Of a stretch of 64,000 nt of DNA, positions 3,980 through 64,000 are shown one piece after another. The notes under the pieces were generated by a model. The model searched no databases and was not told where the DNA came from. It saw only the letters and a list, made by a program, of their open reading frames with translations. Position numbers and translations under genes: made by a program. The number at the start of each line of letters is the position of its first letter. The stretch's first letter is position 1. This stretch comes from a virus (lineage: Duplodnaviria > Caudoviricetes): the IMG/VR virus record IMGVR_UViG_3300022917_000008, positions 91,658-155,657 of that record, one strand, 5' to 3'.

Positions 3980-4003
3980 TTAGATTAAATCCCCTTATAA
4001 GAT

Positions 4004-16232: not shown

Positions 16233-16264
16233 TTTGGAAGTTAGCTATATTTTGTGTAAGTTTG
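16233..16264 (+). promoter_or_regulatory. Bacteroidota sigmaA-type promoter (TTTG-N20-TAAGTTTG)
   Basis: Exact -33/-7 consensus immediately after a terminator and 18 nt before ATG 16283. Confidence 0.75.
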
Positions 16265-16282
16265 GCTTATCAACAATCAATT

Positions 16283-17638
16283 ATGAGTAACAAAGAAAAT
16301 TTAATAGCCTATCTAATCAGGAATGGTAAGGACCTATCTTGGCACGAACTGGCTAAAGCATTTGGGTATGACAGAGCAGACTCTGCTAGGAATGCTTGGC
16401 TAAGATATAGGCAAGACAATCCAGGCACACCTACTTACCTAACCAAACCAGCTCAACCTGTTAACAACATAGTAGGGAGCATGATACCTGGTGTTGCTGA
16501 AAGACTAAGAAGTAGAGAGCAATACATGATGGACCTTGAGGATAAGATCACTAAGTTTGAGGAAGACCTAACTAAGGGCACTGCACAAGTAGAAGCCTTA
16601 GTTGGACAGGAGATCAAGACACTGGAAGAACTAGTAGAGAAGTGTAAGATTGATCTCACCAAATGGCAAATTACTAAATGGGTACAGAACTTCTGGAATA
16701 ACAAGTACCAAGTAAAGGCCTTCCTTGCTCCCAAGGAAGAGAAGAATAAGTTCCAGGAGAACTTCATGAAGTACTTGGAGACATGGGACAAATCTGCTCC
16801 CATAACTCTCACATCTTCAGGTATGTGTAATACTCCTGTAGAATGTTGGGTTGAGGGTGTGGCTAGTGATGTAGAGGCATTGAAGCCTAATGGGTGCCTC
16901 ATCATCAACAAACAGGACTTACACTTCGACAAATATGATATAAAGGGTAATAATGATATACGTGCAAGGTTTGCGCAGTACAAAGGTGCTGTTGAGAGAA
17001 TAGTGAAAAAGGCTAACCTTAGTTACCACATAGCCAAACTAGTATATGTGATAGGTTCTGACGAGTTCAATAGTGAGTGGACAGGAATGACAACTAAGGG
17101 AACCCCACAGAAGAATATGGTTGACTACCACCAAGGATTTGATAGTATATGCAGACACGAAGTAGAGATAATAACTGAGCTGGCAAAGGCTTGTCCTTCA
17201 TTAGAAGTGATATACATGCCTGGGAATCATGACGAGTATGTAGGTTGGCACCTAATAACATGGCTACAGGCTTACTTCAAGGGGCACAAGATACTATTTG
17301 ATGCCAGAACAGACTACAGAAAGTATGGAGCATTTGGCAATTCCTTAATGATGTTCAATCATGGAGACATCATCAAACCTGAGAAGCTTGCTGCTATATT
17401 CCCACAGGAGGCTAAGGAATCATGGTCAAATAGTAACTATCAGTACATCTTCACTGGTGATAAGCATCATGAGAAGACATTGGATATGGATGGTATCATG
17501 TTCTACCAGTTGACTCAAGGATCAAATGCCACATCCAAATGGGACTCCAAACAGGGATATCTTGCCAGGGGATTCCTCACAGCTTTTGTAATATCTGAGA
17601 ACTGGGGTATGGCTGATATATACAAAGAGAAGCTCTAA
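16283..17638 (+). CDS. Calcineurin-like metallophosphoesterase with N-terminal HTH-like segment
   Basis: Metal-binding motifs DLH, GSDEFN, GNHD, HGD and GDKHH; N-terminal SWHELAKAFGY...ARNAW resembles an HTH. Start moved to ATG 16283 because the track's TTG lies inside the -7 box. Confidence 0.8.
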   Translation: MSNKENLIAYLIRNGKDLSWHELAKAFGYDRADSARNAWLRYRQDNPGTPTYLTKPAQPVNNIVGSMIPGVAERLRSREQYMMDLEDKITKFEEDLTKGTAQVEALVGQEIKTLEELVEKCKIDLTKWQITKWVQNFWNNKYQVKAFLAPKEEKNKFQENFMKYLETWDKSAPITLTSSGMCNTPVECWVEGVASDVEALKPNGCLIINKQDLHFDKYDIKGNNDIRARFAQYKGAVERIVKKANLSYHIAKLVYVIGSDEFNSEWTGMTTKGTPQKNMVDYHQGFDSICRHEVEIITELAKACPSLEVIYMPGNHDEYVGWHLITWLQAYFKGHKILFDARTDYRKYGAFGNSLMMFNHGDIIKPEKLAAIFPQEAKESWSNSNYQYIFTGDKHHEKTLDMDGIMFYQLTQGSNATSKWDSKQGYLARGFLTAFVISENWGMADIYKEKL

Positions 17639-31601: not shown

Positions 31602-34600
31602 TGCCAGATTTCTCTTATCTTGATGCTTCAGGAATTGGACAGATAGAAACTCCAACTCAACAACCTAATACATTGCAGGTTGAGGCCCCCCATATTGGTT
31701 ATGGTCCTGCCAAACCTACTCTGGACTTTGGTAACATATGGAAGGAAGGTGCACCAGATACTGGTACTACTCCTCTTTTCAATGATACACTGGACATGAG
31801 CAAGTTCAAAGGAAAGACTCCTCCTAGATCATTTGATGCTGATAGGTTAATACCCTATAAGCAATCAGGTGCCTATAAGGATTTGGGGTACAATCCTGGT
31901 ATGCCTGAGGATAAGATTCAAGCTCAATACGACTATGATCAGTCTAATTGGGAGGCAATGAAGTCTTCCGTTAGTGACTTCTTCCATATCACTGGACAAT
32001 CATTCACTAACTACTTCAAGACTTATGGGGATAGCATTAAGTGGCTGACTAACAGGAACCAGGAAGGCATCATGTATAATGACCTGATCCCACAAGTGGA
32101 AGCAGATAACGAGGCACAAAGGTCCAACCTAAGGTTCAAGGGAGATGTGCCAACACACTGGTACAACTATATTCCATTCCCAGGATTACTGAAGGGGGAT
32201 GTGGCTGAGGAACTATTACCTCAGTTAGGATTTACTGTAGGTACAGGAGCAGCAGCTATCATTGAGAACCTTGGTGTATCCCTGATGACTGCAGGTACAG
32301 GTGAGGCAGCAGAGATTCCCAATACAGCCACAAAAATGTACAAGCTGATCTCAGAGTTCAATACCTTAGCTAGGGGAACACAACTTGTTAAGAGTGGTGT
32401 TTCTGGCACTGTAGAGGGCCTAAGAGCAGGTTTAGATATGTGGAGGCTTACAAATGCTACACTTTCAGAAACAAGCCTAGAAGCAGCTACAAACCTTGTA
32501 CAACACAAGCAGAAACTAATCCAGGATTACATAGACAAGAATGGTCATGCTCCACTAGAAGGTAGTGATGACATGAAGAAAATAGAAAACTCTGCCCATG
32601 ATGTAGCTAGAGAGACTATGTGGGGGGAGTTCCCCGTCTTATTTGCAAGTAACTGGATACAATACAGGAACCTGCTTGCTCCCAATCTAGCTAAGAAATT
32701 GGCTGAGAATGAGGTGATGAAGGGTATGAAGATTGTCAATACTGCTGAGAATGGAATCACATCACAATTTGCTGTTTCAGAAGCTGCAAAGGCCACTCTT
32801 GGACAAAGGGTAGCAGGTGGAGCATCTCATTTCCTTAAGAATGCAGTGACAGAAGGTCTGGAGGAAAGTGGACAGAGATTAGTAAGTACTGCTGCATCTG
32901 ACTATGAGGAAAAGCTGTACCAAGGTAAGGAGCATTCAATGGCCAATAGTATCTTCCAGGTAGGTGTACCTGACATACTGAGTGATAGTGGACTACAGGA
33001 GTTCATGGGTGGATTTGTAACTGGTGGACTATTCCATGCATTTGGTATGGCTGGTAACAAGCTAGCCACACTCAAGGGTGTATTCAATGAAGATGGCACA
33101 CTAAGTGGAAAGGGAAATCTGTTAACAAGGATGGGCTTTGGTACTGAAGAAATAGCTAGGGCCAAAGTAAAGGGCCAATTACAGTCTGTAGCTAATCTAC
33201 TTAATACCGAGGACCTGAAGGATATATTCAAGGAAGAAGGTCTGGCCAATTTCATAAAGGCTACACAGACCTCACAAGCTATGAATGCAGCCCTATTTGA
33301 GAATGACCTATTCAATGTAGGCAATCTCAAATCTAATGCCCTAGTTAGGTTCCTATATACAGGAATGGAGACTGGTAAGCTTGACCTAAGGCTTGCTCAG
33401 TTGGATGCATTTAGAGGGCTATCACAAGAGGAGCTGAACAAGTTCCTTGATATAGACACAGGTGCACTGGACAAGAACACCACTGGAGCTGTCATAGATC
33501 ATATCATTGAGAAAGCCGGACAAGTAGAAGAAATATTTGATGAAGAGAAGGATAGGTTCAAGGACAAGGAGATAAGTGCAATCAAAGCCTTTAATACACA
33601 GAATACCTCTCATGAAGGACTAGAGCAAACACTAAGGACCAAGTATGGTATTGATCCTAATGAGAAGGATATAAGGGGACCATTGATACAAAAGCTGGCT
33701 GAAGACCCTGAGAATGAGGAATTGAAGACTGATCTTGCTAGTGCATATGATAGTAATATCAATAGGAACCTATCCTATATGAACCTTGTTGCAGTAAGAG
33801 AAGGTAGGAAAGCAGCTGTGTTTGCTGCAGCCCAAATGCAGATAGATTCAGATAGAAGTAAGGAAGCTATTGGGACTATGCAGGACTATGATCTTGCATA
33901 CTCAGACCTCAACAACACACTGAATCTCACTGAATTACAGCAACAGCAGAAGGAATTACAGGAGCAAGCTAAGGTATTCCAAGGTGTGGATAGCCAGAAG
34001 ATGTTAGAGATTGATGACAAACTGAGAAGGCTGGATAGAATCTTGCATCATCTTTCACTATTCTACAGGGAGAATATTGATGGTTCCCCTTATGGGCATG
34101 GTATGCCCATCAGTGAAGCTGACCACTATGATGAAGGTGCTAAAGCATTGGTGGCAGCAGGTGCTCTATATGACTATCTGCATGATGAACTTGATCCACA
34201 GAAGCTAAGAACTAAGGGCAAAGAGACAAGAATGCTTGCTATGATCCTTAGACTGGAGAAAAGAAATAGGGATAACCTATCGCTGTATAACAGACTGACT
34301 ACATCTGATCAAGGGTTTGATGAGTACAGCAAGCAAGAGACACAAAAGACAGCTGCTACAATTGGTAGATGGACTAATGAGTACCTGAAACAACATGCAG
34401 ATGAACCTGAGAGTGAACCTATACAACAACCTACTGAACAGGAAGAACAAGTGGTAGAGCATGTTGAGCCAGTACAACCTGTACAGACTCAACAACAACA
34501 GGACTTTGATGCAATCAAATCTAAGGTTGCAAAGGGAGAACCTTTGTCTGATGAGGAAAAACAATTCTTAGCACAGGGGGCCCTAGTTAATCCTGATATA

Positions 34601-51074: not shown

Positions 51075-51095
51075 ACTCTCTTAACTTGATTGATT

Positions 51096-52673
51096 ATGAG
51101 CTTGATAAGTTCTGATGGCAGCATACTAATCCTGGCAAAGGACTGTGTGACTGACTTGAAGGTGAATAACCCTAATAGGTTCTCCCTTTCAACAGCACCT
51201 TCCTCTTCATTTCTGTTCTCAGGAACAGGAACAACTACTCCTTTGACTGGAAGTGTAAGAATTTCAGGTCAATCAGGGAATGTTATTATATTGAGGCCAG
51301 ATGGACTGTATGTTACCTTTCCTTCCTACACTGAGACTTTGCTAACTGCAATAGACTCTCCAACTATAAACCTAACTACAACTGGCTTATCTTCCCATAC
51401 ATTGAAGGCTGATGTCAAAGTGTCAGCTGCTGCAGGTAATGCATTGATTGTCAAGCCTGATGGGCTATACACTACAGCACCAACTGGGGGAACTTACACA
51501 GATGCACAGGCTAGGAATGCTATCTCAGCACTAACTCCATTACAGTATAACAATACAACTGGGGTTCTGTCTATTCTAAAAGCCACTGCATTACAGGCTG
51601 GTTATCTTTCAGCCCTTGACTGGGTAACATTCAACTCCAAGGAACCTGCCATTACGGGTGGAAACACTTCCCAGTACTGGAGAGGAGATAAGACTTGGCA
51701 AACATTGAATACCAGTGTAGTACCTGAGTTAGGGAATCTGTACTTCACTACAGTAAGAGCAAGAAATGCTCTATCTGCACTAGCTCCAATATCCTACAAT
51801 AACATTACTGGTGTCATATCAATGGTACCTGCTGGTGGAGGACAAGATGGATACCTTAGTTCTATAGACTGGAATACATTCAACTCTAAGATAGGAGATG
51901 GATTGTCTCTTGCCTCAGTTAATGCCCAGAGTGTCTACAAGGACAAGGTGAGTGGAGTACTTAGGTTCAGGGGTATAAGAGGTGATGGAGCTACTATCAC
52001 TGCATCCCTTATTGGAGATGACATAGTACTTACTGGAAGTGGTTCAGTGCCTGTAGTTAATGCAGGTGCAGACAAGTCAGTTGTGCTTCCAACTACTTCA
52101 GTTGCAATGACTGGAGGTGCAAGCACATCACAAGGAACAATGGTATCCACTACCTGGTTATTTATATCAGGCCCTAGTGGATGGTCTATTTCAGATGCTT
52201 CCTCTCCAACTACACTGGTAACTGGACTAAGTGCAGGTACCTTTGTATTTAGACTGTTAGGCATCAACAGCTTTGGCCTATCTAACACAGATGATGTGGC
52301 CATAGTTGTAAGTGGTAGTGTAGTAGTACTTGATACAATATATGTAGGTGCTAAGGCTACAGGCTCTACACCAACAGAAGCTGAGATACTTGCATCCATA
52401 TCTTCTACACAGAATGGTGCACTCAATGTCAATGCAGATTGGACTTCATTCAACAGTGTTCCTCAATTCACATTCTTTGCAATACCAGATGGTGGTGCAG
52501 CTTATGAGAAGAACAAGTGGTATGTTGATCCTCTGAACAATGGTAACATTGGATCACCTAGTGATGCATTTGGTGCTCTGTCTGTGGTAACAGTCAATGG
52601 AAATGCATACTCTGTAGGTATCTCAAACTATGCTACTCAGTGGACAGCAGTTGTTTCACTTCAAAAGGTATAA
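51096..52673 (+). CDS. Fibre-like protein with a PKD domain
   Basis: Two GN..I..PDGLY repeats, two GYLS..DW.TFNSK repeats, a QYWRGDKTWQTLNT module and a PKD unit (PVVNAGADKSVVLP...GLSAGTFVFRL). Confidence 0.7.
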   Translation: MSLISSDGSILILAKDCVTDLKVNNPNRFSLSTAPSSSFLFSGTGTTTPLTGSVRISGQSGNVIILRPDGLYVTFPSYTETLLTAIDSPTINLTTTGLSSHTLKADVKVSAAAGNALIVKPDGLYTTAPTGGTYTDAQARNAISALTPLQYNNTTGVLSILKATALQAGYLSALDWVTFNSKEPAITGGNTSQYWRGDKTWQTLNTSVVPELGNLYFTTVRARNALSALAPISYNNITGVISMVPAGGGQDGYLSSIDWNTFNSKIGDGLSLASVNAQSVYKDKVSGVLRFRGIRGDGATITASLIGDDIVLTGSGSVPVVNAGADKSVVLPTTSVAMTGGASTSQGTMVSTTWLFISGPSGWSISDASSPTTLVTGLSAGTFVFRLLGINSFGLSNTDDVAIVVSGSVVVLDTIYVGAKATGSTPTEAEILASISSTQNGALNVNADWTSFNSVPQFTFFAIPDGGAAYEKNKWYVDPLNNGNIGSPSDAFGALSVVTVNGNAYSVGISNYATQWTAVVSLQKV

Positions 52674-52677
52674 TTAG

Positions 52678-55398
52678 ATGGCAATAACAGTTAATGATAG
52701 CATACAAAATAACAGTCCCAAGAGTATAGATAACAAGTATCTAAACCTGGGGATAGTGACCTATGTTGATAAAGCAGAGGTCAACTCTGTCATTCCATTT
52801 GCCTATAGAAGTAGAGGACTGACTGTGAACATTGCTGGATCAGAGTTCTGGTACAAGGATGGACTGGAAGATGCTGCCCTTGTATCAAAGGGTATTACAA
52901 GTGTATTAGGTCCACTTTCCCTGGACTTTACTACTGGTATTATGTCCATAACACCTGCCTCTAATAGTGTCAATGGATATCTTACAAGTGGAGATTGGAC
53001 TTCCTTCAATAACAAACTGGGAAGTGTTCTTACAGCCATGTCAGTGACTAACACTGGGGTATCTGGCAATCCAATTACACTGGTCAATGACCAACCTACA
53101 CCTGGTGCCACAATGTACTATGGTACCAACAGTGGAGGTGTGAAGGGATTCTATCCTGTTCCTGTAGCAAGTGGGGGTGGCCCTGCAGCTGTATGGGGAG
53201 GCATTACAGGCACTCTTAGTGATCAGACAGATGTATACAATCTGATACAAGGAAAGGAACCTGCCTTATCTGCTGGCACAACAGCACAATATTACAGGGG
53301 GGATAAGACCTGGCAGACACTCAACACAAGTGCTGTACCTGAAGGCTCCAATCCTTACTTTACTACAGCTAGGGCAAGGACTTCTCTAAGTGCAGGAGCA
53401 GGCATAAATTACAATAGTACAACTGGTGTAATTGCATCAACAATCACCCAAGCAGATGGTACAGAAACAAAGCTAACTGCAGGGTCTAACATAACAATCA
53501 CTGGAACTGGTTCATCTACAACACCTTATACAATCAGTACTACAGGTGGAGGTACAGTTACTAGTGTAGGTCTATCAAGCACAGACCTGACTGTATCTGG
53601 AACACCAGTTACAGGGGCAGGCACTATTACAGCTAACCTTAGTACAACTGGGGTAACAGCTGGATCATATACATTCCCCAGTATAACTGTGGATGGCAAG
53701 GGAAGGCTTACTGCTGCAGCCAATGGAACACTTCCAGTTGCTACAACAGGAGTAGCTGGTATTGTGAGAATTGGCACAAACATTAACGTGTCAGCAGGTG
53801 TAATTAGTGTTACATTCCCTTCTCTGCCAATAGCTTCCAGTACAATACTAGGAGGTGTGAAGATTGGATCAGGTGTGAGTGTGGCAGGTGATGGAACTAT
53901 TAGTGTTACTGGGTACACTCTCCCTATTGCCTCAAGTACAATACTTGGTGGTGTTAAGGTGGGTAGTGGCCTTGCTATAGATGTGAATGGTGTTCTATCC
54001 TCAACAGCAGGTGGTGGTAGTGTTACAAGTGTAGCATTCTCCTCTACTGACCTTAGTGTGTCTGGTTCACCAATCACAGGAGCAGGAACTATAACTGCAA
54101 ACCTTACTGCTACTGGAGTGTCTGCAGGCACATATAATAATGTGAGTGTGGATGTGAAGGGTAGAGTGACAGCTGCCTCAGTTGTTTCCTATCTAACTGG
54201 TAATCAGACTATTACACTTAGTGGAGATGTGACAGGTAGTGGCACAACAGCTATTACTACTGCACTCTCAGCTACAGGTGTAACAGCTGGAACCTACACT
54301 AGGGCCACAATAACTGTGGATGCAAAGGGTAGGATCACAGCAGCTTCAACAAATGCAGCTGGGGTTACTTCTGTAGGGCTGAGTTCCTCAGATATGGTTG
54401 TTACAGGCTCTCCTATAACCTCCACAGGATCATTTACACTGACTCTAAATACAGTCAATGCAAATGTAGGAACATTCAACAATGTGACTGTAAACGCCAA
54501 GGGATTGGTTACAGCTGCATCCAATGCTTCCTACATAACAGCCAACCAAAATATTACTCTGTCAGGAGATGTAGCTGGATCAGGTACAACTGCAATTACA
54601 GCAACAATCCAACCTGCTGCTGTAACTTACACTAAGATACAGAATGTAACTGCAGCCAGGTTACTTGGTAGATACACTGCATCTGTAGGCTCAGTACAGG
54701 AAGTAACAATAGGAAGTGGATTGTCTCTGGACAGTACAACAGGCGTACTTAGTGCAGCAGGAGGTGGAAGTGGTACTGTAACTAACTTTAGTGCAGGTAC
54801 CCTATCTCCAGTATTCACTACCTCTGTAGCTAATGCATCAACTAATCCTGCTCTTACATTTGCTCTAAGCAATGCAGGTGCTCATCAATTCCTTGGTAAT
54901 AACACAGGGTCTTCAGCTGCTCCTACTTATGTGCAGCCAGCCTTTACAGACCTGAGTGGTAATATCAATGTCAACCAGATGAACAGTGGTACAAATGCTT
55001 CATCCTCAACAGTTTGGAGAGGTGATGGCACTTGGACTATAGTGACTAGTGGCACATATACTCCTACTGTAAATGGTATCAGTAATGTTACTTCTCCATC
55101 AGGTCAGCCATGTGCGTGGACTAGAATAGGCAATACAGTAACAGTATCTGGAGAAGTAGACCTAACTAACAGTGGTACAGGTAGAGTAGCATTTACCATA
55201 ACTCTACCCATCAATATAACCTCAGGTAGCCTGATGGGAGGAGCTGGAGCAGCCATACCCTTTGGTACTCCTACACAAGGCTTTGGTCCTGTGGCAATTG
55301 AAGCCTCATCTACAACCACAGCACTATTCACTCTATTTATGTCTAGCACCCCCTTCACCTTCAGGGTATTATTCACCTTCTCTTATAACATTGCATAA
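52678..55398 (+). CDS. Long tail fibre protein
   Basis: 906 aa, T/G/S-rich; repeats TGV[TS]AG[ST]Y..[IV][TS]VD.KGR[LVI]TAA, LPIASSTILGGVK[IV]GSG and QTITLSGDVTGSGTTAIT; C-terminal GTYTPT...WTRIGNTVTV tip domain. Confidence 0.82.
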   Translation: MAITVNDSIQNNSPKSIDNKYLNLGIVTYVDKAEVNSVIPFAYRSRGLTVNIAGSEFWYKDGLEDAALVSKGITSVLGPLSLDFTTGIMSITPASNSVNGYLTSGDWTSFNNKLGSVLTAMSVTNTGVSGNPITLVNDQPTPGATMYYGTNSGGVKGFYPVPVASGGGPAAVWGGITGTLSDQTDVYNLIQGKEPALSAGTTAQYYRGDKTWQTLNTSAVPEGSNPYFTTARARTSLSAGAGINYNSTTGVIASTITQADGTETKLTAGSNITITGTGSSTTPYTISTTGGGTVTSVGLSSTDLTVSGTPVTGAGTITANLSTTGVTAGSYTFPSITVDGKGRLTAAANGTLPVATTGVAGIVRIGTNINVSAGVISVTFPSLPIASSTILGGVKIGSGVSVAGDGTISVTGYTLPIASSTILGGVKVGSGLAIDVNGVLSSTAGGGSVTSVAFSSTDLSVSGSPITGAGTITANLTATGVSAGTYNNVSVDVKGRVTAASVVSYLTGNQTITLSGDVTGSGTTAITTALSATGVTAGTYTRATITVDAKGRITAASTNAAGVTSVGLSSSDMVVTGSPITSTGSFTLTLNTVNANVGTFNNVTVNAKGLVTAASNASYITANQNITLSGDVAGSGTTAITATIQPAAVTYTKIQNVTAARLLGRYTASVGSVQEVTIGSGLSLDSTTGVLSAAGGGSGTVTNFSAGTLSPVFTTSVANASTNPALTFALSNAGAHQFLGNNTGSSAAPTYVQPAFTDLSGNINVNQMNSGTNASSSTVWRGDGTWTIVTSGTYTPTVNGISNVTSPSGQPCAWTRIGNTVTVSGEVDLTNSGTGRVAFTITLPINITSGSLMGGAGAAIPFGTPTQGFGPVAIEASSTTTALFTLFMSSTPFTFRVLFTFSYNIA
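53761..54010 (+). repeat. Coding repeat LPIASSTILGGVK[IV]GSG in the fibre gene
   Basis: Two near-identical peptide copies plus a degenerate third; diverged at synonymous positions. Confidence 0.6.
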
Positions 55399-56393
55399 TG
55401 GCACTAATAGTTAATGACTCCATACAGAACAATAGTCCCAAGCCTGTGGACAATAAGTACGGGGTATTCTCAGCAGGCTCCTTCAGACCATATAACAATG
55501 TGACTGAGGCTAACAGCCTTATACCAGCTGCTTATAGGTCTATTGGTCTGACCACACTAATAAACACTGGTAGTGGTAATACTGAATACTGGTATCAAGC
55601 TGGTATTGCAGATGGGAATCTTGTGCCTAAAATATCCACTACTTCAGTATCAGTTCCTATTACTCTCACAGGTGGAGTGATAGGCATACAGATAGCTAAC
55701 ACATCACAGGCAGGTTATCTAAGCTCAGCAGACTGGAATACTTTCAATAGCAAGATTAGTGGTGCAACCAGTGTAGGAGCTGGTACTTCCATCATTAATA
55801 CGGTGGGTAGTGGTACAATAAGCGTCAAGTCTATTACTGGAAGTGGTGGTGTTACTGTGACAGACAATACTACCTCAATCAACATTGCAACCACTGTATC
55901 TACTGGTTCCAATGTAGGATCAGGAGCAGGGATATATGCTAGTAACACTGGGGCTCAGTTAAATCTGAGAAGCATCATAGGTACTGGCAACATCTCAGTT
56001 ACACAGAACACTAATGATGTTACCTTAAGTCTTGTTGGTACTACAATACCAGCACCAGTTACTACATCCAATGCTACTCCTAGTGCTTTGACCTCAGTTA
56101 CAATTGAGAATAATAGTGCAGGTATACTTGAGATTACATTGATAGGTATTGTTGTAGGTACTCCCACTACCTACACAATGGCTAAGAGATACGCCAAATA
56201 CTACAAGATAGGTGGAGTTGTAAATGTGATTGAGGTGGGAGATATTATCTCAGAATCTCTGGGTACACTTACAACAGCTACTTGGACAATTGTAGCCAAT
56301 GGTACAACCAACAACATAGATGTGACTATCACTGGGCAAGCTTCCACAAACATTAAGTGGACAGCTACAGTACAGAAGTACTTCACAACATAA
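55398..56393 (+). CDS. Short fibre protein, N-terminal paralogue of 52678
   Basis: MALIVNDSIQNNSPKPVDNKY versus MAITVNDSIQNNSPKSIDNKY; also contains GYLSSADWNTFNSK. Confidence 0.75.
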   Translation: MALIVNDSIQNNSPKPVDNKYGVFSAGSFRPYNNVTEANSLIPAAYRSIGLTTLINTGSGNTEYWYQAGIADGNLVPKISTTSVSVPITLTGGVIGIQIANTSQAGYLSSADWNTFNSKISGATSVGAGTSIINTVGSGTISVKSITGSGGVTVTDNTTSINIATTVSTGSNVGSGAGIYASNTGAQLNLRSIIGTGNISVTQNTNDVTLSLVGTTIPAPVTTSNATPSALTSVTIENNSAGILEITLIGIVVGTPTTYTMAKRYAKYYKIGGVVNVIEVGDIISESLGTLTTATWTIVANGTTNNIDVTITGQASTNIKWTATVQKYFTT

Positions 56394-58525
56394 TGATTAT
56401 GAAGAGATTATTAGGACTTATTGGATTACTGATCATGTCCTTAGTATCACAAGCACAGGTAACTATTGCTTCTGATGTAAGGATAAGGTCTGCAGCAGGT
56501 ACAGCTCCTAATGTGGTGATACCAGTTAATGGAGGTATTCTATATGCAGATGGGAATGGACTAGTCAAGAAGACATCAGCCCTTATGGGGATTGGATGGG
56601 TTCCTGTAGACACTACTTCCCTAAGAACATATACAACTGGGGTAACTGGCATTGTGTATCACATGACTACTCCTGGTAGGGAAGGTGACTACAAGTATGA
56701 TGCTAGTGACCTTTCCTCTACAGATAATGGCTCTACTGTAATAGTAGCAGGTACAGCTAGGTACAAAAGGATTATAGAAGGTAGTGTGGATGTGAGATGG
56801 TTTGGTGCAGTAGGAGATGGTTCTACCAATTGTACAGTACCTATACAAAGGGCCATAGATTGGTGTGCTAGCCAAGGACAGAGCAGTAAGGTTGTATTCA
56901 TCCCACAAGGAAATTACCTTGTAGACTCACTAAGGCTGAGGAATGGAGCAAGTATAATGGGGGACAACAAGAGAACAACCATAACTGCCAGAGCATCAAG
57001 TGCTTCTGGTTTATTTGTTCTAGTGGATGCCCCAACACAAAAGATTAGTATAAGCAACCTGACTATAGTGGGAAACGCAGCTAATGCTGGGCAACACTGT
57101 TTCAACATCACAGCTATCCCCCAGTTAGTCCCAGCTTATACAGGAGGGCTTTGGTATTCAGAGTTCTCATTTATGGACATAACTGGATTTAGGGGGCATA
57201 CATTCCATTTCTATTGTAGTGATGGACTAGGAGATATGGCCAACCAATTCATTGACATATACAAGGTTATAGTGCATAGCACAGCAGATGCAGGATCAAG
57301 AGGGCTATATGTGGAAGGACAGATGGGGCAGTTGAAGGTGCAGAGTTGTGAGTTTGATGGGCTTGCAGCATCCAATGTAGGAACAGTAGGAGTTGAGCTT
57401 AAGAGTATAACTCCCAGTACAAATGACTTTGCATGGGGGATTAGCTTTGACAACACAACAATACAGAATGTTTGGAAGGCTATGTACACCTCATTTGCTC
57501 AGAATGTTGTGTTCCAGAATGGTTGGTTAGAGGATGACAGCTCTGGTGTTCATGGTACAAATGCATCCAGGCTAAGGATTCTGGATAATCACATAGCCAA
57601 TGTGGCTGAGGTAGCAGGTACTGCCATTATTATCAATGATGACAATAGTGTTATTGACCTGGTGGGTAATGGGCTATATGGAGCATTAGGTGGTAGAGTT
57701 TATACCTCAAGTAGCCAATCAAGTGGTAGTGGGGATATAAGAGACAACTACTTCCAGAACTTGGGTGCTATTACAACTGTGTTTGTTGCAGGCAATATAA
57801 ATGTATCTTCTGGTACACTAAACAGTGCTTACTTCAGAGACATAGTTACAACTGCAACTACTAACAAGAGTACCTATGTTGTAAACATCAACAGTAGCTT
57901 AGGGCCTGGTGAATTCCTTACAGTGAGATGTGATGCCAGATTTGTACCTGGTGGATTCGTAGCATTCAAGCCTGGACTTGGTAACATCAGTTACCCAGGT
58001 GAGGTAGATAGTGGATTCATAGTCCTTAGGGACAAGGAGACAGCCATATTCAGAAGAACAGACTTGTTTGGGGATTGGGCACTCATTGCACTAAGTAAGC
58101 CAGAAAGGTACTCAGACACAATTCCCACTGTAGGCTCGTACTATAGTGGAGAGAAGATTTGGAATAATAACCCAGCAAATGGAACCTTATACTGGTATTG
58201 CAAGCTGGGAAGTATTCCTGCAGTATGGGATAGTGTTACAACAGTTCCAAAAGCAAACATAATTGAGACGTCTGCCTCTACACTATCAATCACAGCACCA
58301 GGCAACTACATATTTCTGGGATCAAGTGCTACTTGGACATTACCTCCTCTAGCTAGTAGCTATGGTAAGAGGTACTACCTCAACAATAGTACAGCAGGAA
58401 CAGTCACACTAAATGCAAATGGCTCTGATGATATAATGATTGGATCAAGCCCTTCTACTACATTCCCACTAACAACTGGAACTATAAGGCTTGTAGGAGG
58501 TACTGCCCATTGGTACTTAGAATAA
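56393..58525 (+). CDS. Signal-peptide-bearing beta-helix (pectate lyase 3-like) depolymerase / tailspike-like protein
   Basis: Start at 56393 (TAATG) or 56399; MKRLLGLIGLLIMSLVSQA|Q; VDVRWFGAVGDG...IQRAID...VFIPQGNY beta-helix cap; C-terminal WTLP domain. Confidence 0.8.
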   Translation: MIMKRLLGLIGLLIMSLVSQAQVTIASDVRIRSAAGTAPNVVIPVNGGILYADGNGLVKKTSALMGIGWVPVDTTSLRTYTTGVTGIVYHMTTPGREGDYKYDASDLSSTDNGSTVIVAGTARYKRIIEGSVDVRWFGAVGDGSTNCTVPIQRAIDWCASQGQSSKVVFIPQGNYLVDSLRLRNGASIMGDNKRTTITARASSASGLFVLVDAPTQKISISNLTIVGNAANAGQHCFNITAIPQLVPAYTGGLWYSEFSFMDITGFRGHTFHFYCSDGLGDMANQFIDIYKVIVHSTADAGSRGLYVEGQMGQLKVQSCEFDGLAASNVGTVGVELKSITPSTNDFAWGISFDNTTIQNVWKAMYTSFAQNVVFQNGWLEDDSSGVHGTNASRLRILDNHIANVAEVAGTAIIINDDNSVIDLVGNGLYGALGGRVYTSSSQSSGSGDIRDNYFQNLGAITTVFVAGNINVSSGTLNSAYFRDIVTTATTNKSTYVVNINSSLGPGEFLTVRCDARFVPGGFVAFKPGLGNISYPGEVDSGFIVLRDKETAIFRRTDLFGDWALIALSKPERYSDTIPTVGSYYSGEKIWNNNPANGTLYWYCKLGSIPAVWDSVTTVPKANIIETSASTLSITAPGNYIFLGSSATWTLPPLASSYGKRYYLNNSTAGTVTLNANGSDDIMIGSSPSTTFPLTTGTIRLVGGTAHWYLE

Positions 58526-58535
58526 AATAACAAAC

Positions 58536-59639
58536 ATGAAGAAACTACTAGGGCTTGTCACACTTCTGATAATATATGTGACAGCACAATCCCAAACTAC
58601 AGTGGCTAACTCATTGCAGGTCAATACTGCAAAAGGTACTGCACCTTCACAGGCTATTCCTGTGAATGGTGGTATAGCCTATTTTGATGCAAATGGTATA
58701 CTAAAGAAGACTACAGCCCTAGCTGGTTTGGGAGCAAAGGTTACCAGTGTAACTGCAACTAATGACTCCACTCTATCTATTGTTACAGATGCAGGAACTA
58801 CTCCTGTACTTGTAAGAGGGTTGTTTACACCCACAAGGCAGAAATGGTTTGACTCCCTAAAGGCTGGCCAGATATTTGATACCATTAGGGTACAGCAGGT
58901 TGGTGCAGGGATCAACCCAATCTATTCCAATGCTGCTGGTACAATACTACTAGGCAAGGCACTAAGGGGATCAGGCACAATTGAAATACAGAGGGCTACA
59001 GATAGTTCTCTGGTGTTCAATAGTTTATATGCCTTCCCTCAATCAGTTATAGCTACAGGAACAAATGGTAATAACATTGGGCTTGTGGGTGACAATGCTT
59101 CTCCCCCCAATGGTTCTGTATATAGCATACAGGGGGGTAGCAAGGGGTGGTACCTGGCTAACACATTTGCAGTGGCAACAAGTACTGCTAATGGCTTACT
59201 GGACTTCAGATTGAAGAACAGGATAGATAGTATTGTAACTTTCACTAACTTTACAGTTGGAGGAACTTATGATAGTATTGCTGTTGCTTCTCCTACTCTG
59301 GATAGTGTCATATTGAAAGGACAGAAGTTTAGAGGAGCAGCTGGTTCTTCCCTTAGTGTGACAAATCAGGGGAATGTATTTACCAATGACTATGTATTTG
59401 ACATAGGAATAAGGGTTGCACAAGCATCAGCAACTGCTGATGGAACCTCTACAGTCTACAATATTGCACATGGACTAACTGGGGTAACAACAAGTTCCCC
59501 AGCTATAGTAAGCCCAAGAAATGCCTTGGCTAATAGTCAGCCTTATATTGTGACAGTCACATCAACAAATATTGTAATAACTTATTCATCCCCACCTAGT
59601 GCAGGATCAATGCTCTACTCATACATAATAAGACCATAA
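58536..59639 (+). CDS. Signal-peptide-bearing fibre-like protein
   Basis: MKKLLGLVTLLIIYVTAQS|Q; mature N-terminus paralogous to 56393; C-terminal ADGTSTVYNIAHGL lectin/fibre-like domain. Confidence 0.72.
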   Translation: MKKLLGLVTLLIIYVTAQSQTTVANSLQVNTAKGTAPSQAIPVNGGIAYFDANGILKKTTALAGLGAKVTSVTATNDSTLSIVTDAGTTPVLVRGLFTPTRQKWFDSLKAGQIFDTIRVQQVGAGINPIYSNAAGTILLGKALRGSGTIEIQRATDSSLVFNSLYAFPQSVIATGTNGNNIGLVGDNASPPNGSVYSIQGGSKGWYLANTFAVATSTANGLLDFRLKNRIDSIVTFTNFTVGGTYDSIAVASPTLDSVILKGQKFRGAAGSSLSVTNQGNVFTNDYVFDIGIRVAQASATADGTSTVYNIAHGLTGVTTSSPAIVSPRNALANSQPYIVTVTSTNIVITYSSPPSAGSMLYSYIIRP

Positions 59640-61012
59640 TGAAAAGACTACTTGCAACCATCTCATGTCTACTAGTATACTTCCTTTGCCAATCACAGGT
59701 AGTGAGGATAGGTACCATGGTATACCCTACAGGAGTGGGGCCTAACCTCATTACACTTAGTACATCCTCACTTACAGGGTTCTCTACACCACAAGGTACA
59801 CCTTCAACTGCTCAGACATTTACTGCTAGTGCAGTTTCTCTGACTGCAGGTGTAACTATCACAGCACCAACGGGATATGAAGTATCTACAGACAACTCTA
59901 CATTTACAGGATCACTAACCCTGGGACAATCTGGGGGTACACTTGTAGGGCAACCTGTTACGGTATATGTGAGAATAACCAGTGCAGCATCTGCTGGTAG
60001 TGCTAATGGAACATTGACAGCCTCTTCAACTGGGGCTACAACAAAGTCTATAACATTAACTGGGACAGTCACTTCTACATCCCCTAGCATATCAGTGAGC
60101 ACCAACTCCCTTAGTGCCTTTTCAACTACTGCGGGTAGTGCAAGTGCCTCACAATCATTCACTGTAAGTGGAGCAAACCTAACAGCAAATGGATTGGTTA
60201 CTCCCCCTAGTGGTTTTGAAGTGTCTGGAGACAATACAACCTTCCAATCTACTTTCACCTTAACACAAGGTGGAGGAGTATTTAGTGGGCAGCCTGTTCC
60301 TCTGTATATAAGAGTAGCTGCTTCTACAGCTGCTGGTACATACTCTGGTAACGTATCTATATCATCTACTGGTGCTACTACTAAGAATGTAGCAGTGAAT
60401 GCAACAGTCAATAGTGCTGGTGGTGGTTCAGTTGCTAAGTTCAATTTCACATTTGATAACTCTGGGCAAACAGCAGCTGGATGGACTAAGTTCTATGGTA
60501 GTAACCAAACTAACCTTTCATTCACTGATGCAGGTACAGGTTGGACTCTACAAACAACTGGGGCTAATTGGGCAGGGTTTGCAGGAACAGGATATGGTTC
60601 TAACACTGAAGGAGCAACTACAGGAACCTTTGGATCAACATTCCCTGCAGCAGTAATAGCAGGTGTGTACTACAATGTAAACAGGACTTACAGTGGCTCC
60701 AACTATGGCTTCCACATAGATAACCTACCAACAGGTAACTACACAATCCAGATAGTAGGGTCTATCAAGTCTTCTGTCAACAATCAGGTAACATTCCCTG
60801 AGTATCATGTGAAGTTTGGATCAAATGCAGATCAGGAAGCACACACAATGAACAATCAGGATAATACTGGTAATCCTAATGACAATACACACGTACTAAG
60901 CTTCACTAACAACATAACAGCTGGACAATCACTATCCTTTGGTGTATTTGCTCCTAGCTCTCTTGTACCTGGAGCTGGATGTATCAATGCAGTGATCATT
61001 ACAAAAAACTAA
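59639..61012 (+). CDS. Signal-peptide-bearing Ig-repeat protein with C-terminal carbohydrate-binding-like domain
   Basis: MKRLLATISCLLVYFLCQS|Q; two ~115-aa repeats (Q[TS]FT...LTA...P[TS]G[YF]EVS.DN...GQPV..Y[VI]R...SSTGATTK). Confidence 0.72.
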   Translation: MKRLLATISCLLVYFLCQSQVVRIGTMVYPTGVGPNLITLSTSSLTGFSTPQGTPSTAQTFTASAVSLTAGVTITAPTGYEVSTDNSTFTGSLTLGQSGGTLVGQPVTVYVRITSAASAGSANGTLTASSTGATTKSITLTGTVTSTSPSISVSTNSLSAFSTTAGSASASQSFTVSGANLTANGLVTPPSGFEVSGDNTTFQSTFTLTQGGGVFSGQPVPLYIRVAASTAAGTYSGNVSISSTGATTKNVAVNATVNSAGGGSVAKFNFTFDNSGQTAAGWTKFYGSNQTNLSFTDAGTGWTLQTTGANWAGFAGTGYGSNTEGATTGTFGSTFPAAVIAGVYYNVNRTYSGSNYGFHIDNLPTGNYTIQIVGSIKSSVNNQVTFPEYHVKFGSNADQEAHTMNNQDNTGNPNDNTHVLSFTNNITAGQSLSFGVFAPSSLVPGAGCINAVIITKN

Positions 61013-61013
61013 T

Positions 61014-64000
61014 ATGAAAAGAATACTTCAAACACTGGCTCTACTACTGATCTATGTAGTAGGCCAGTCTCAGAACACAACTCCAACCTATACTCAGCCA
61101 ATAGGCACCACTTTTGGTAACATGACTGTTATCAACATGGCGTATAATGCCCCTGGGTTTGCCTATGGGCAGGCTATGGTTTATTTGCCCCCTGGTTACA
61201 ATGACCCTGCTAATGCTACAAAGAAGTACCCTCTATACTTCTTTAGCCCTGGTAGTGGTGAAACTTCTCAGAACAACATCATTGAAGTACAGACCACTTC
61301 TTTACCCCAGCTGATAGCCCAGGGATTCAATCCCTATTCTATAGACACACTAACTGGGGATACAGTGAGATGGATAGTCATTGTACAGCATGCTGTAGGT
61401 GGAGCAGCAAATGCCTACCCTCAGCTGAAATACACTTTCCCCTATCTACTAGCAGACACTTTATACAGAATAGATCACAATTGTGTATGGGCTGGTGGTC
61501 TCTCTAATGGGTGTAGAGCCTCTGTATCCATTATAGTAGGACAAGTGGTAGGAGACACTGCTCTTGGAAAGATGATCACAGGCATCATGCCAATATCAGG
61601 CGCAGGATATGATGACTACCAGAACACTACTGGATTCAGGAACCTTGACACCTTCATGGTTAGAGGTGGAGGAGTCTTGTATACAATAGGATCACAGGAT
61701 CAGAACTTTAATGCTCTGGGTTATGTGGCATTTGATAACAAGTACACTCAGTTTGCAAGGCCAAACAAGTACAGGAGGTATGTGGCTCTAAACCAGGGAC
61801 ACACAGCTAGTGTATGGACTCCTTGTTTCCAGTTGAATTTCAAGCAATTTGATAGTACTCAATTCAAATGGAATGCCTGGGACCTGATGTGGGCTATGAG
61901 AAAGAATGCTGCTGTAGCTTCCCTTAGTGCCAATGCAGGTACCAACCAGACTATAACAACTCCTGCATCTACCACTACTCTTAATGGTAGTGGTCAGACT
62001 CCTAGTGGTACCACTATTACTGGATATGCCTGGACTAGAATTAGTGGTCCTAACACTCCTACAATTGTATCACCAAGTAGTGCAACTACCAATATAACAG
62101 GGTTAGTACTAGGGACATATGTGTTCCAACTACAGGTAACCAACTCAGCTTCAAACACTGCTACTTCACAAGTTACTGTGACTGTACAAAGTCAACCAGC
62201 TAACCCTCCAATTGTTTCAGCAGGTGGAGCACAGAGCATACAACAACCTACTTCCTCAGCTACATTGAATGGTAGTGTAACTCCACAAGGATCAAACACT
62301 ATCACTAGCATTACATGGACACAAACAAGTGGCCCTGTAACAGCTAACATTGTATCTCCTTCATTTGCAAGCACTAACATAACAGGTCTTACTACCTTGG
62401 GTACCTATGTATTCAAGATAACTGCTGTAGATAGTAGGGGACAATCAGCCAACTCCAATGTGAATGTGGTAGTTAGTCCTAATCCAGGATCAGCTAATGT
62501 AGTACTTAAGCCAGTAATTACTGAGTATGCAGTTGCATTTATCTATAAGGGAGACTCTCTTACAAGGAAATTCACCTACAACCAGACTACAGGCCACGTG
62601 CAGTTTGATCCATTTGTAATGGGTAGCAGGAAGACTATAGATGGTGCTCCTTTGTTCAACACATTTGTGCTACTGGATGATCAACACTACATGTGGAGGA
62701 CAACTACAGGTACTTCCAATGCAGTTAGAATGGACACAGACACACTGGGAAATCCTCTCAATGATGTACAATCTGTGTATGGATACTTCTTCACTGGAGC
62801 TTGTATCAGAACAGATGGTTCTATCTGGTACTTTGGACAAGATGACTACCACTTCTATAGTGCAGGTGGTATCACCATGAACAAGCCTATCAAGCTGAAT
62901 CAGCCTCCTGGTGTACAGTTCAAGGCACTGGCTATGGGTGTAGACTTACTAGGGCTAACAACAACTGGGGATGTTTACTACTGGGCACTGGGTGATCCTA
63001 CCTATCATCAGGTAACACTTCCAGGACCTGCCTTATTCATAGGTTCTTCCCACTACAACTACAAGGTTATAGTGGTGGATGATGGTGCTGGTAGTGGAAT
63101 GGGATACCCCTATGTATTTGGTAGTGAATTTGGATTCTGGGGTGGTAATGCACAGGCTCCATATACAGCTCCTCTCCCAATGAAGACATTGTGGGGCATG
63201 ACCCAGCCAATCAAGTCTCTGGCTGTATCCAATAACACAATTCACTATGTTGACTCACTGGGGAGAATGTATGGAATTGGAGATGGTCCCAATGGAGAAA
63301 TTGGGGATGGAAGGCATCTGGTGAATCATGCAGAGTTGTATCCTAGTCCATTTGCATGGTCCTGGGTCAAAGGGGAGCTATTTACAGGGGCTCCTGCAGT
63401 TCAGGTAGCTCCAGGTATTGTTTGGAAAGAGGTCTTTGCTGGGCCTGCATTTGCTTATTACAACTATGCCAAGGATGTCAATGACTCCCTATACTTCTGG
63501 GGAAGAAACAAATCCTTTGTGGGTGGAGATGGGGTAGCAAACAACCAAGAAGTTACCTATCCCAATGGATTGGATGTGGATACTCCTAGTATGAGGACAC
63601 CCTTAGCTGTTACACCAACACAGACACAATACTATAATTTTAGCCTACCAACTGCAAATGTTGGAGCTAACCAGAACATTAACACAACTTCAACTACTCT
63701 TAGTGTGACTGCTACTCCACCTTTACTGGTGGCTAGTGGTAAGCCTAACTATGGGTACACAATAGCTAGTTACTTATGGACTAAGTTAAGTGGCCCTAGC
63801 TGTACAATAACAAGTCCAAGTACTGCCACAACTACAGTAACAGGAATGGGATCAGGTACTTACTCTTTCAAAGTACTGATGACAGATAACAACAGAAGCA
63901 CTTGGGCTGATACTTTACAGGTGGTAGTAAATACCTCTCTTCCAATAGTGAGTGCAGGTTCTAACCAGGTGGTGACTCTGCCTACTACACTAACACTTAA
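61014..64000 (+). CDS. Signal-peptide-bearing alpha/beta-hydrolase + PKD repeats + RCC1-like propeller protein (3'-truncated; not in ORF track)
   Basis: Translated by hand and open to the window end: MKRILQTLALLLIYVVGQS|Q; YLPPGY...KKYPL; nucleophile G-L-S-N-G (61497-61511); candidate acid and His in GSQD and QGH; PKD units (ANAGTNQTI, VSAGGAQSI, ANVGANQNI, VSAGSNQVV); RCC1-like DGSIWYFG, GDVYYW and GRMYGIGDGPNGEIG. Confidence 0.85.
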   Translation, partial: MKRILQTLALLLIYVVGQSQNTTPTYTQPIGTTFGNMTVINMAYNAPGFAYGQAMVYLPPGYNDPANATKKYPLYFFSPGSGETSQNNIIEVQTTSLPQLIAQGFNPYSIDTLTGDTVRWIVIVQHAVGGAANAYPQLKYTFPYLLADTLYRIDHNCVWAGGLSNGCRASVSIIVGQVVGDTALGKMITGIMPISGAGYDDYQNTTGFRNLDTFMVRGGGVLYTIGSQDQNFNALGYVAFDNKYTQFARPNKYRRYVALNQGHTASVWTPCFQLNFKQFDSTQFKWNAWDLMWAMRKNAAVASLSANAGTNQTITTPASTTTLNGSGQTPSGTTITGYAWTRISGPNTPTIVSPSSATTNITGLVLGTYVFQLQVTNSASNTATSQVTVTVQSQPANPPIVSAGGAQSIQQPTSSATLNGSVTPQGSNTITSITWTQTSGPVTANIVSPSFASTNITGLTTLGTYVFKITAVDSRGQSANSNVNVVVSPNPGSANVVLKPVITEYAVAFIYKGDSLTRKFTYNQTTGHVQFDPFVMGSRKTIDGAPLFNTFVLLDDQHYMWRTTTGTSNAVRMDTDTLGNPLNDVQSVYGYFFTGACIRTDGSIWYFGQDDYHFYSAGGITMNKPIKLNQPPGVQFKALAMGVDLLGLTTTGDVYYWALGDPTYHQVTLPGPALFIGSSHYNYKVIVVDDGAGSGMGYPYVFGSEFGFWGGNAQAPYTAPLPMKTLWGMTQPIKSLAVSNNTIHYVDSLGRMYGIGDGPNGEIGDGRHLVNHAELYPSPFAWSWVKGELFTGAPAVQVAPGIVWKEVFAGPAFAYYNYAKDVNDSLYFWGRNKSFVGGDGVANNQEVTYPNGLDVDTPSMRTPLAVTPTQTQYYNFSLPTANVGANQNINTTSTTLSVTATPPLLVASGKPNYGYTIASYLWTKLSGPSCTITSPSTATTTVTGMGSGTYSFKVLMTDNNRSTWADTLQVVVNTSLPIVSAGSNQVVTLPTTLTL

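Follow-up and report, generated by a model that had tools for sequence, protein, structure and literature searches.

Predicted export signals on six consecutive fibre- and depolymerase-like genes of a tailed phage

Introduction

Why should fibre-like and glycan-cutting proteins encoded behind the tail genes of a phage begin with what look like secretion signals, when tailed-phage particles are held to assemble wholly in the cytoplasm? The question is raised by IMG/VR virus record IMGVR_UViG_3300022917_000008, a contig of 155,657 bp, the last 64 kb of which (positions 91,658 to 155,657; the whole stretch of 64,000 nucleotides that was analysed, hereafter the window) ends in a series of such genes. 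A preliminary description of the window had singled out four consecutive spike, fibre and enzyme genes sharing a signal peptide of 19 amino acids (aa) for the general secretory (Sec) pathway, with glutamine at the first position after the predicted cleavage site (Gln +1). Here, we describe a block of six such genes, named sp710, sp367, sp457, sp1085, sp134 and sp83 in gene order (Table 1). Judged by their signals and by the composition of the mature proteins, the products are very probably exported and matured in the periplasm. Together, the six genes may represent the outermost glycan-recognising and glycan-cutting gear of the phage, and the reading that we favour, to which we give about an even chance, is that the products dock on virions as accessory parts.

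Table 1. Positions of the leader-less fibre genes and of the leader-bearing block. Coordinates refer to the window unless the contig is named; a slash marks the predicted cleavage site.
Feature	Position	Strand	Leader	Description
f527	51090..52673	+	No signal peptide; N-terminus not hydrophobic	Fibre-like; one PKD domain (PF22352); 1 Cys
f906	52678..55398	+	No signal peptide	Fibre; DUF5907 repeats (PF19264); 1 Cys
f331	55398..56393	+	No signal peptide	Short, fibre-like; 0 Cys
sp710 signal peptide	56393..56455	+	21 aa (19 from ATG 56399)	Predicted cleavage SQA/Q
sp710	56393..58525	+	See row above	N-module of about 45 aa, pectate-lyase-like beta-helix, C-terminal domain; 7 Cys
sp367	58536..59639	+	58536-58592	N-module, low-confidence shaft, C-terminal beta-sandwich knob
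sp457	59639..61012	+	59639-59695	Two immunoglobulin (Ig)-like repeats, C-terminal domain like a lectin or carbohydrate-binding module
sp1085	61014..64000	+	61014-61070	First 995 of 1085 aa in the window
sp134	contig 286-690		Ends TRA/Q	134-aa PKD protein; conserved C-x5-C after the leader
sp83	contig 707-958		Ends AFG/Q	83 aa

Six consecutive genes carry predicted signal peptides

The four N-termini quoted in the preliminary description read in the sequence exactly as given, but the expectation that signals would occur on these four open reading frames (ORFs) only did not hold: six consecutive genes, flanked by the tail/fibre genes on one side and by the lysis cassette on the other, begin with a leader, and about five further leaders are found elsewhere in the genome. 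The contig is a closed circle, with an end overlap of 12-13 nucleotides (nt) that is repeated at the contig start. sp1085 leaves the window and the contig in the middle of a PKD repeat and resumes in frame at the contig start; after removal of the overlap it encodes 1085 aa and is identical to P0009, a protein from an independent assembly. The first gene, sp710, may start at ATG 56393 (MIMKR..., a leader of 21 aa) or at ATG 56399 (MKR..., 19 aa), so that the common leader length of 19 aa holds for the second of these starts and for the other three window genes, and not for the first. The genes follow each other closely, in agreement with the preliminary description: the starts at 56393 and 59639 overlap the preceding stop codon as TAATG, and 10 nt and 1 nt separate 58536 and 61014, respectively, from the gene before.

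The four window leaders have a Lys/Arg n-region, an uncharged hydrophobic core and glutamine at both -2 and +1, with small residues at -3 and -1 (S..A, A..S, C..S and G..S). In gene order, the predicted cleavage contexts of the six leaders are SQA/Q, AQS/Q, CQS/Q, GQS/Q, TRA/Q and AFG/Q. All six pass the rules for Sec export and cleavage by signal peptidase I (SPase I), namely a positive n-region, then an uncharged hydrophobic stretch (about 10-15 residues), and a cleavage site with small side chains at -3/-1 followed by Gln +1. These calls come from a simple rule-based scan combined with conservation among homologues, and by both measures the leaders look genuine, as first proposed. Gln +1 after SPase I cleavage (the Q-rule) is a feature of the Bacteroidota (PMC5837995; PMC10653852). 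Leaders with Gln +1 occur in about 11 of the approximately 170 ORFs of the genome, those beyond the block belonging to small early-region proteins. By chance, a run of at least six leaders would be expected with a probability below 3e-6, and a run of at least four with a probability below 2e-3 (both upper bounds).

Downstream of sp83 lie small genes, including those for a membrane-anchored protein of 224 aa and a phage lysozyme (PF00959), and then a strong terminator at contig 3801-3829. The block is therefore part of one late operon that runs from the tail/fibre genes through the block to the lysis cassette. A scan of 50-64 kb for sigma-70 promoters and terminators, whose model does not cover Bacteroidota promoters, gave nothing above the shuffled background.

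The leaders are conserved while their sequences drift

Among homologues the leader sequences drift, while the leaders as such persist down to about 37% identity. The homologues of sp710 (P0006-P0008; 47-52% identity) all have a leader with Gln +1, each with a different leader sequence, and the phage clade of sp1085 has retained a leader with Gln +1. For sp457, 14 complete homologues among the 16 listed, down to 37% identity, carry a leader, mostly with glutamine at the predicted +1 position; the other two begin inside the gene. sp710 and sp367 have in common about 45 residues beyond the leader, here called the N-module (55% over 66 aa), and in the alignment of this module all 18 proteins have a leader, with Gln +1 as an invariant column. 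Gln +1 is thus present in six of the six block proteins, and in most complete homologues of the other three families, those of sp710, sp457 and sp1085. The survey of related genomes proposed in the preliminary description bears this out, the leaders being kept in the syntenic contigs L003 and L088.

Two public gene calls have lost the leader. That of sp710 (P0005; 696 aa) begins at Met15, inside the leader (window 56393-56440), and that of the L003 homologue of sp1085 begins at an internal methionine, while an upstream TAATG-coupled start restores the leader. Automatic annotation can therefore hide such signals.

Cysteine and sequon content change at the first leader-bearing gene

The nine consecutive tail/fibre proteins encoded upstream of the block (window 26218-56393; 10,003 aa) contain four cysteines in total, with a single one in each of the two giants of 4065 and 2319 aa, whereas the six proteins of the block contain 20 in 2,848 aa. 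The same contrast is seen in the related contig L091.

A second contrast concerns the sequon D-(S/T)-(A/I/L/V/M/T) of the general O-glycosylation system of Bacteroidota, which acts on extracytoplasmic proteins only (PMC8550257; PMC12871550). We counted D[ST][AILVMT] against composition-preserving shuffles. The observed/expected ratio is 2.5 for the block (z 5.0) and 5.9 for the other Q-rule proteins of the phage (z 7.2), compared with 0.90 for the remaining 42,963 aa of the proteome. Four of the six proteins, sp367, sp1085, sp134 and sp83, are enriched individually (p 0.001-0.03); sp367, for instance, has six sequons against 1.5 expected. No enrichment is found in the leader-less fibre f906. 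At the family level the ratio is 3.2 for N-module proteins and 2.7 for the phage clade of sp1085, against 0.64 for the leader-less fibres of relatives, it being understood that the family z-values overstate significance because homologues are not independent. Leader-bearing beta-helix proteins of other phages are not enriched in the sequon.

Both contrasts start exactly at the first leader-bearing gene. Cysteine and sequon content are two independent marks of a different folding compartment, and they point to maturation in the periplasm, which we consider, like export, well supported. The block proteins carry the marks of Bacteroidota O-glycoproteins, that is, a predicted extracytoplasmic location together with sequons, and are candidates for glycosylation.

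Three further observations concern the same marks. The highest sequon excess of the genome (eight against 0.9 expected) belongs to the 224-aa protein mentioned above (L004 1754-2428, at the contig start), which has an N-terminal membrane anchor, is encoded in the lysis cassette just upstream of the lysozyme gene and may be a glycosylated spanin-like protein. Five Q-rule proteins are encoded on the minus strand of the early region (contig 32439-32801, 61517-61963, 63154-63516, 69499-69888 and 71171-71887); jointly enriched 5.9-fold in the sequon, they are candidate exported factors for host takeover or exclusion. Finally, three head/neck proteins are rich in cysteine (window 7369-9339, 2.1%; 11836-13560, 3.7%; 13581-14924, 5.2%), with sharply lower values in their neighbours.

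The block encodes predicted glycan-binding and glycan-cutting proteins

The preliminary description had proposed a depolymerase, an esterase and adhesin-like proteins among the products, and these assignments agree with what we find. sp710 matches PF12708 at 51.9 bits (cut-off 27) as well as the PHROG families of exopolysaccharide (EPS) depolymerases and tail spikes, and its profile matches in the PDB are a beta-1,3-glucanase and a phage tail fibre. It is predicted to be a beta-helix glycan depolymerase. Its C-terminal domain is swapped for another one in close relatives. More generally, the leader and N-module stand at the head of at least 18 proteins, of 168-1108 aa, with differing distal domains.

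sp367, the second N-module protein, has no match in Pfam, PHROGs or NCBIfam. Its monomer model is poor outside the knob [mean predicted local distance difference test (pLDDT) 65], but the knob itself, formed by the C-terminal 75 residues, is a beta-sandwich with pLDDT >90. With modest scores (Foldseek probability up to 1.0 at E ~0.02; Z 5-6.5), it is similar to the C-terminal domains of pyocin fibres and of phage receptor-binding proteins, tailspikes included. From this model, sp367 resembles a short fibre with a tailspike-like knob. In a search of 50,697 cultured phage records (tblastn/blastn), sp367, sp1085 and the block DNA gave no match, and the matches of sp710 were confined to generic beta-helix regions in phages from other phyla.

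sp457 and sp83 likewise have no match in Pfam, PHROGs or NCBIfam, and a comparison of sp457 with the Protein Atlas gave a weak lead only (score 0.77), to clusters of Ig-like domains. In related phages, however, the whole body of sp457 is fused behind a leader and N-module (P0203, 40% identity over 430 aa; P0156), and the fused gene directly follows an f331-like gene. The N-module proteins and sp457, split in this phage and fused in its relatives, are therefore parts of a single system. A lipobox-like motif (VSAC) is found only in sp83 among the six proteins; its cysteine is not conserved in L003 or L088, so that we rejected sp83 as a lipoprotein, and a lipobox with a conserved Cys +1, as in superinfection-exclusion lipoproteins of the Llp/Cor type, is not found in the block.

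sp1085 comprises, in order, a CE1-like serine esterase domain, two PKD domains, an RCC1-like propeller, two further PKD domains and a CxC tail (PF22352 and PF25390). Residues 20-310 have no Pfam match even at E 5, although some bacterial homologues carry precomputed annotations of PF02230 or PF00756. The model of this domain is an alpha/beta hydrolase [predicted template modelling score (pTM) 0.87] that Foldseek relates to carboxyl, feruloyl (CE1) and acetyl-xylan esterases, with E values to 1e-11. Ser145 in a GLSxG motif, Asp210 and His244 are invariant in 14 homologues and follow the canonical order. The N-terminal domain of sp1085 is thus predicted, from fold and catalytic residues, to be a CE1-like serine esterase.

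Bacterial homologues of sp1085 (P0013, P0016 and P0019) show approximately 50% identity over the full length, with the same domain order and a leader. They end in the Por_Secre_tail domain (PF18962) of the type IX secretion system (T9SS), which the phage clade does not have. The gene of P0013, the closest full-length bacterial homologue (50%), lies among genes for glycosyltransferases, a Wzx-type flippase and an exosortase, that is, in an EPS locus. By these relationships, sp1085 is taken to descend from a host-type secreted enzyme of an EPS locus. None of the six block proteins contains a T9SS sorting domain (Por_Secre_tail or CHU_C) in Pfam or NCBIfam, and the phage clade of sp1085, being devoid of this domain, cannot use the T9SS in the known way. 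At the C-termini of this clade (L004 1-270; homologues P0010-P0025), a conserved CxC (CGCL, CNCL or CQCL) followed by about 12-15 residues takes the place of the T9SS domain.

Leader-less fibres and genomic setting

Three fibre-like genes without leader, f527, f906 and f331, directly precede the block. Modules of f527 are found again in f906 and in the PKD domains of sp1085, while the first 120 aa of f906 recur in f331 with 47% identity. f331 has no match in Pfam, PHROGs or NCBIfam. In this phage, as in L003, L088, L091 and L090, the gene directly before the first N-module gene is f331-like and has no leader. The predicted complex of three copies of f331 (residues 100-331) with three mature N-modules scored 0.00, with an uncertain fold of the partner, and speaks neither for nor against docking. 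In L091, a GIY-YIG/NUMOD3 homing-endonuclease-like gene (3294-4040) interrupts the series of fibre genes. The same contig has a leader-bearing beta-helix gene upstream of leader-less fibres, so that both kinds of gene are interleaved there.

The phage has a crAss-type portal (phrog_6547, E 2e-76) and major head protein (phrog_11589) by PHROG profiles, the portal being 22-25% identical to crAss-like portals. By its portal and major capsid protein we consider it Crassvirales-like, a class read from these genes and distinct from a formal taxonomy. As to the host, the taxon names among partial matches to bacteria hint at Bacteroidota resembling Chitinophagaceae. The closest cultured relative of the portal (window 63-2651) is that of a cyanophage, Leptolyngbya phage Lbo-JY46, at 33% identity, well above the 22-25% of gut crAss-like phages. 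The observed/expected ratio of the dinucleotide CpG is 0.00-0.08 in each segment tested across window 1-64000, each of the four window genes of the block included. In the same segments GpC is normal (0.8-1.07), and the avoidance of CpG suggests strong selection against restriction or modification targets containing CG. Three related contigs, L003, L088 and L091, have the gene order of the block in common, with phage lysis genes next. Within the structural operon there is also a DNA-repair exonuclease gene (window 16262-17638; phrog_704, E 6e-38).

Interpretation

What is seen directly are the signals and how they are conserved, the identities of the domains and the marks in composition; from these we infer export, glycosylation and, most of all, docking. 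The six genes would be expressed late, from a transcript that also covers the tail genes and the lysis cassette. Their products would cross the inner membrane via Sec, SPase I would cut before the invariant glutamine, and this residue would be cyclised to pyroglutamate, as in Bacteroidota. Maturation in the periplasm would then comprise disulfide formation and O-glycosylation by the host at D-S/T-x sequons. Periplasmic proteins would meet the particles built in the cytoplasm only when lysis by holin and endolysin merges the two compartments. At this point, sp710 and sp367 would most likely dock through the N-module as accessory receptor-binding proteins or depolymerases, probably together with sp457. 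sp1085 and the two small proteins might either dock as well or be released as stable free factors that act on host exopolysaccharide.

Docking is favoured, at least for sp710, sp367 and sp457, on account of the modular N-domain, the constant f331-like neighbour, the fusion of sp457 to the N-module in relatives and the precedent of Cellulophaga phage phi10:1 (see below). Free action is plausible too, since sp1085 is of host-EPS-locus descent and the phage has three fibres without leader, and a mixture of docked and free proteins is likely.

Several points weigh against this reading. For this uncultured phage, export, cleavage and docking are all deduced from sequence. The leader-less f527, f906 and f331 could suffice as receptor-binding proteins, and the ancestry of sp1085 in a host-type EPS locus would fit a free enzyme and a virion part equally well. 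sp710 and sp457 are not individually enriched in the sequon, nor are gp091-gp095 of phi10:1; phi10:1 is moreover an analogue, not a homologue, and mass spectrometry (MS) of virions can detect proteins that merely co-purify. The virion fibres gp21-gp26 of Bacteroides phage crAss001, a textbook case of assembly in the cytoplasm, are all without leader. Finally, we know of no described mechanism for assembly within seconds of lysis.

The strongest competing explanation, which we judge clearly less probable than docking but still worth serious consideration, is that the proteins are exported and never become parts of the virion. They would act on polysaccharide on its way through the periplasm, or work as stable free enzymes and lectins once the cell has lysed, stripping, deacetylating or binding the exopolysaccharide or capsule of the host. 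This would help progeny to be released and to diffuse, destroy the receptors that debris carries or exclude superinfection. All of the evidence for export applies equally to this explanation. The EPS locus of P0013 also fits it, as does the T9SS domain that the phage copies have lost; deprived of this domain, the phage sp1085 would stay in the periplasm until lysis. Bacteria do export tailspike-like EPS depolymerases, such as WceF (PMC7949094), and Q-rule proteins of Porphyromonas gingivalis phages have been proposed as modifiers of the host envelope (PMC10367356); the phage, for its part, already owns leader-less fibres. On the other hand, one N-module on many distal domains, next to a constant f331-like neighbour, is the pattern of docking receptor-binding proteins, and the analogues in phi10:1 are annotated as detected in virions, without any leader-less candidate in gp091-gp095. 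Furthermore, the free depolymerases of other phages are released at lysis and need no export.

It is improbable that the hydrophobic N-termini are not working signals at all, but result from wrong starts, fossil leaders or helices with another role, with folding and assembly in the cytoplasm. The public call of sp710 from Met15 (P0005) would agree with this, as would the leader-less assembly of the crAss001 fibres. However, the TAATG-coupled starts are kept in L003, three of the four window genes have no internal methionine within or just after the leader, and, across families, sequence drift has left the leader properties and Gln +1 in place. The exact onset of the cysteine and sequon contrasts at the first leader-bearing gene also argues against it. 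An origin of the block from the host chromosome, from a recent moron or through chimeric assembly, as might be suspected from its place at the contig end and from the bacterial relatives of sp1085 and of the Ig-like repeats, is so improbable that we set it aside, in agreement with the preliminary description, because the circle closes in frame to give the same 1085-aa protein as an independent assembly, the gene order is kept in three relatives with phage lysis genes after it, CpG is equally scarce inside the block and elsewhere in the window, and 185,579 bacterial and archaeal genomes searched with patterns from sp1085 alone, an approach limited to close relatives, yielded no confirmed match.

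The favoured reading, of export followed by docking, may extend beyond this phage. We consider it conceivable, if somewhat short of an even chance, that many Bacteroidota phages of various morphotypes build receptor-binding fibres and depolymerases outside the cytoplasm, by Sec export, pyroglutamate formation, disulfide bonding, addition of host O-glycans and clipping on through an N-module during or after lysis. If true, assembly would follow a route through two compartments that has not been described in tailed phages, and part of the virion surface would be covered with host glycans. Conserved export signals on fibre-like and depolymerase proteins, recurring in crAss-like, sipho- and P2-like phages of Bacteroidota, challenge the cytoplasm-only rule for a whole host phylum. 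Were the route real, gene callers that trim leaders would hide the signal, as for sp710; recombinant production of such depolymerases may require folding in the periplasm; how the host glycosylates these proteins may determine host range and immune visibility; and lysis would be a step of assembly as well as of release.

Comparison with known systems

In the literature searched, where coverage of subscription journals is limited, we found no paper on signal peptides or export of tailed-phage tail fibres. The leader-less state is the ordinary one: among 80 beta-helix homologues from viral contigs that we examined, 69 have ordinary leader-less tailspike N-termini. crAss001, which belongs to the same broad group by portal similarity, places its fibre/spike genes just upstream of the lysis genes, as in our phage. 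In six unrelated low-GC phage contigs (L009, L010, L029, L036, L037 and L038), on the other hand, a beta-helix gene has a leader, with glutamine at or near the predicted cleavage site. In these contigs, from small phages and including P2-like baseplate modules, the gene occupies the tail-fibre slot beside holin or lysis genes. In L010, the protein with the leader terminates in a fibre-tip domain that also occurs in leader-less fibres of cultured Flavobacterium and Olleya phages.

The Q-rule and O-glycosylation have been described for host proteins, whereas here their marks are found on receptor-binding-like proteins of a lytic-type tailed phage. Among bacterial proteins, the T9SS cargo of esterase-PKD-RCC1-PKD type has the same domain order and leader as sp1085, the difference being that the bacterial proteins keep PF18962 and the phage ones do not. 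WceF of Pantoea stewartii is trimeric and exported, has a beta-helix of tailspike fold and cuts the bacterium's own exopolysaccharide; it differs from the block in being a host gene product without virion link, exported folded via the twin-arginine translocation (Tat) pathway rather than Sec (PMC7949094).

Among phages, Matrishin et al. (2023; PMC10367356) reported five Q-rule proteins from those of P. gingivalis, with a proposed role in altering the host envelope. Like the block proteins they are SPase I substrates with Gln +1, read as a use of Bacteroidota secretion; their prophage genes, however, have no assigned function; they were not identified as encoding fibres, spikes or enzymes, nor are they grouped as a block within a tail operon (PMC10367356). 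A parallel in gene arrangement is found in phi10:1 (NC_021802). This siphovirus of a marine flavobacterium differs from our phage in that its proteins show neither sequence homology to the block nor sequon enrichment, and in that gp091-gp095 include no leader-less fibre candidate, compared with the three leader-less fibres here. Yet gp091-gp095 are, like the block, consecutive tail-end genes that all five encode a leader with Gln +1. They include two pectate lyases and a tail fibre and lie upstream of the lysis genes (four small genes, then the endolysin gp102), and gp091-gp094, a pectate lyase and the tail fibre among them, are annotated as structural from tandem MS of virions.

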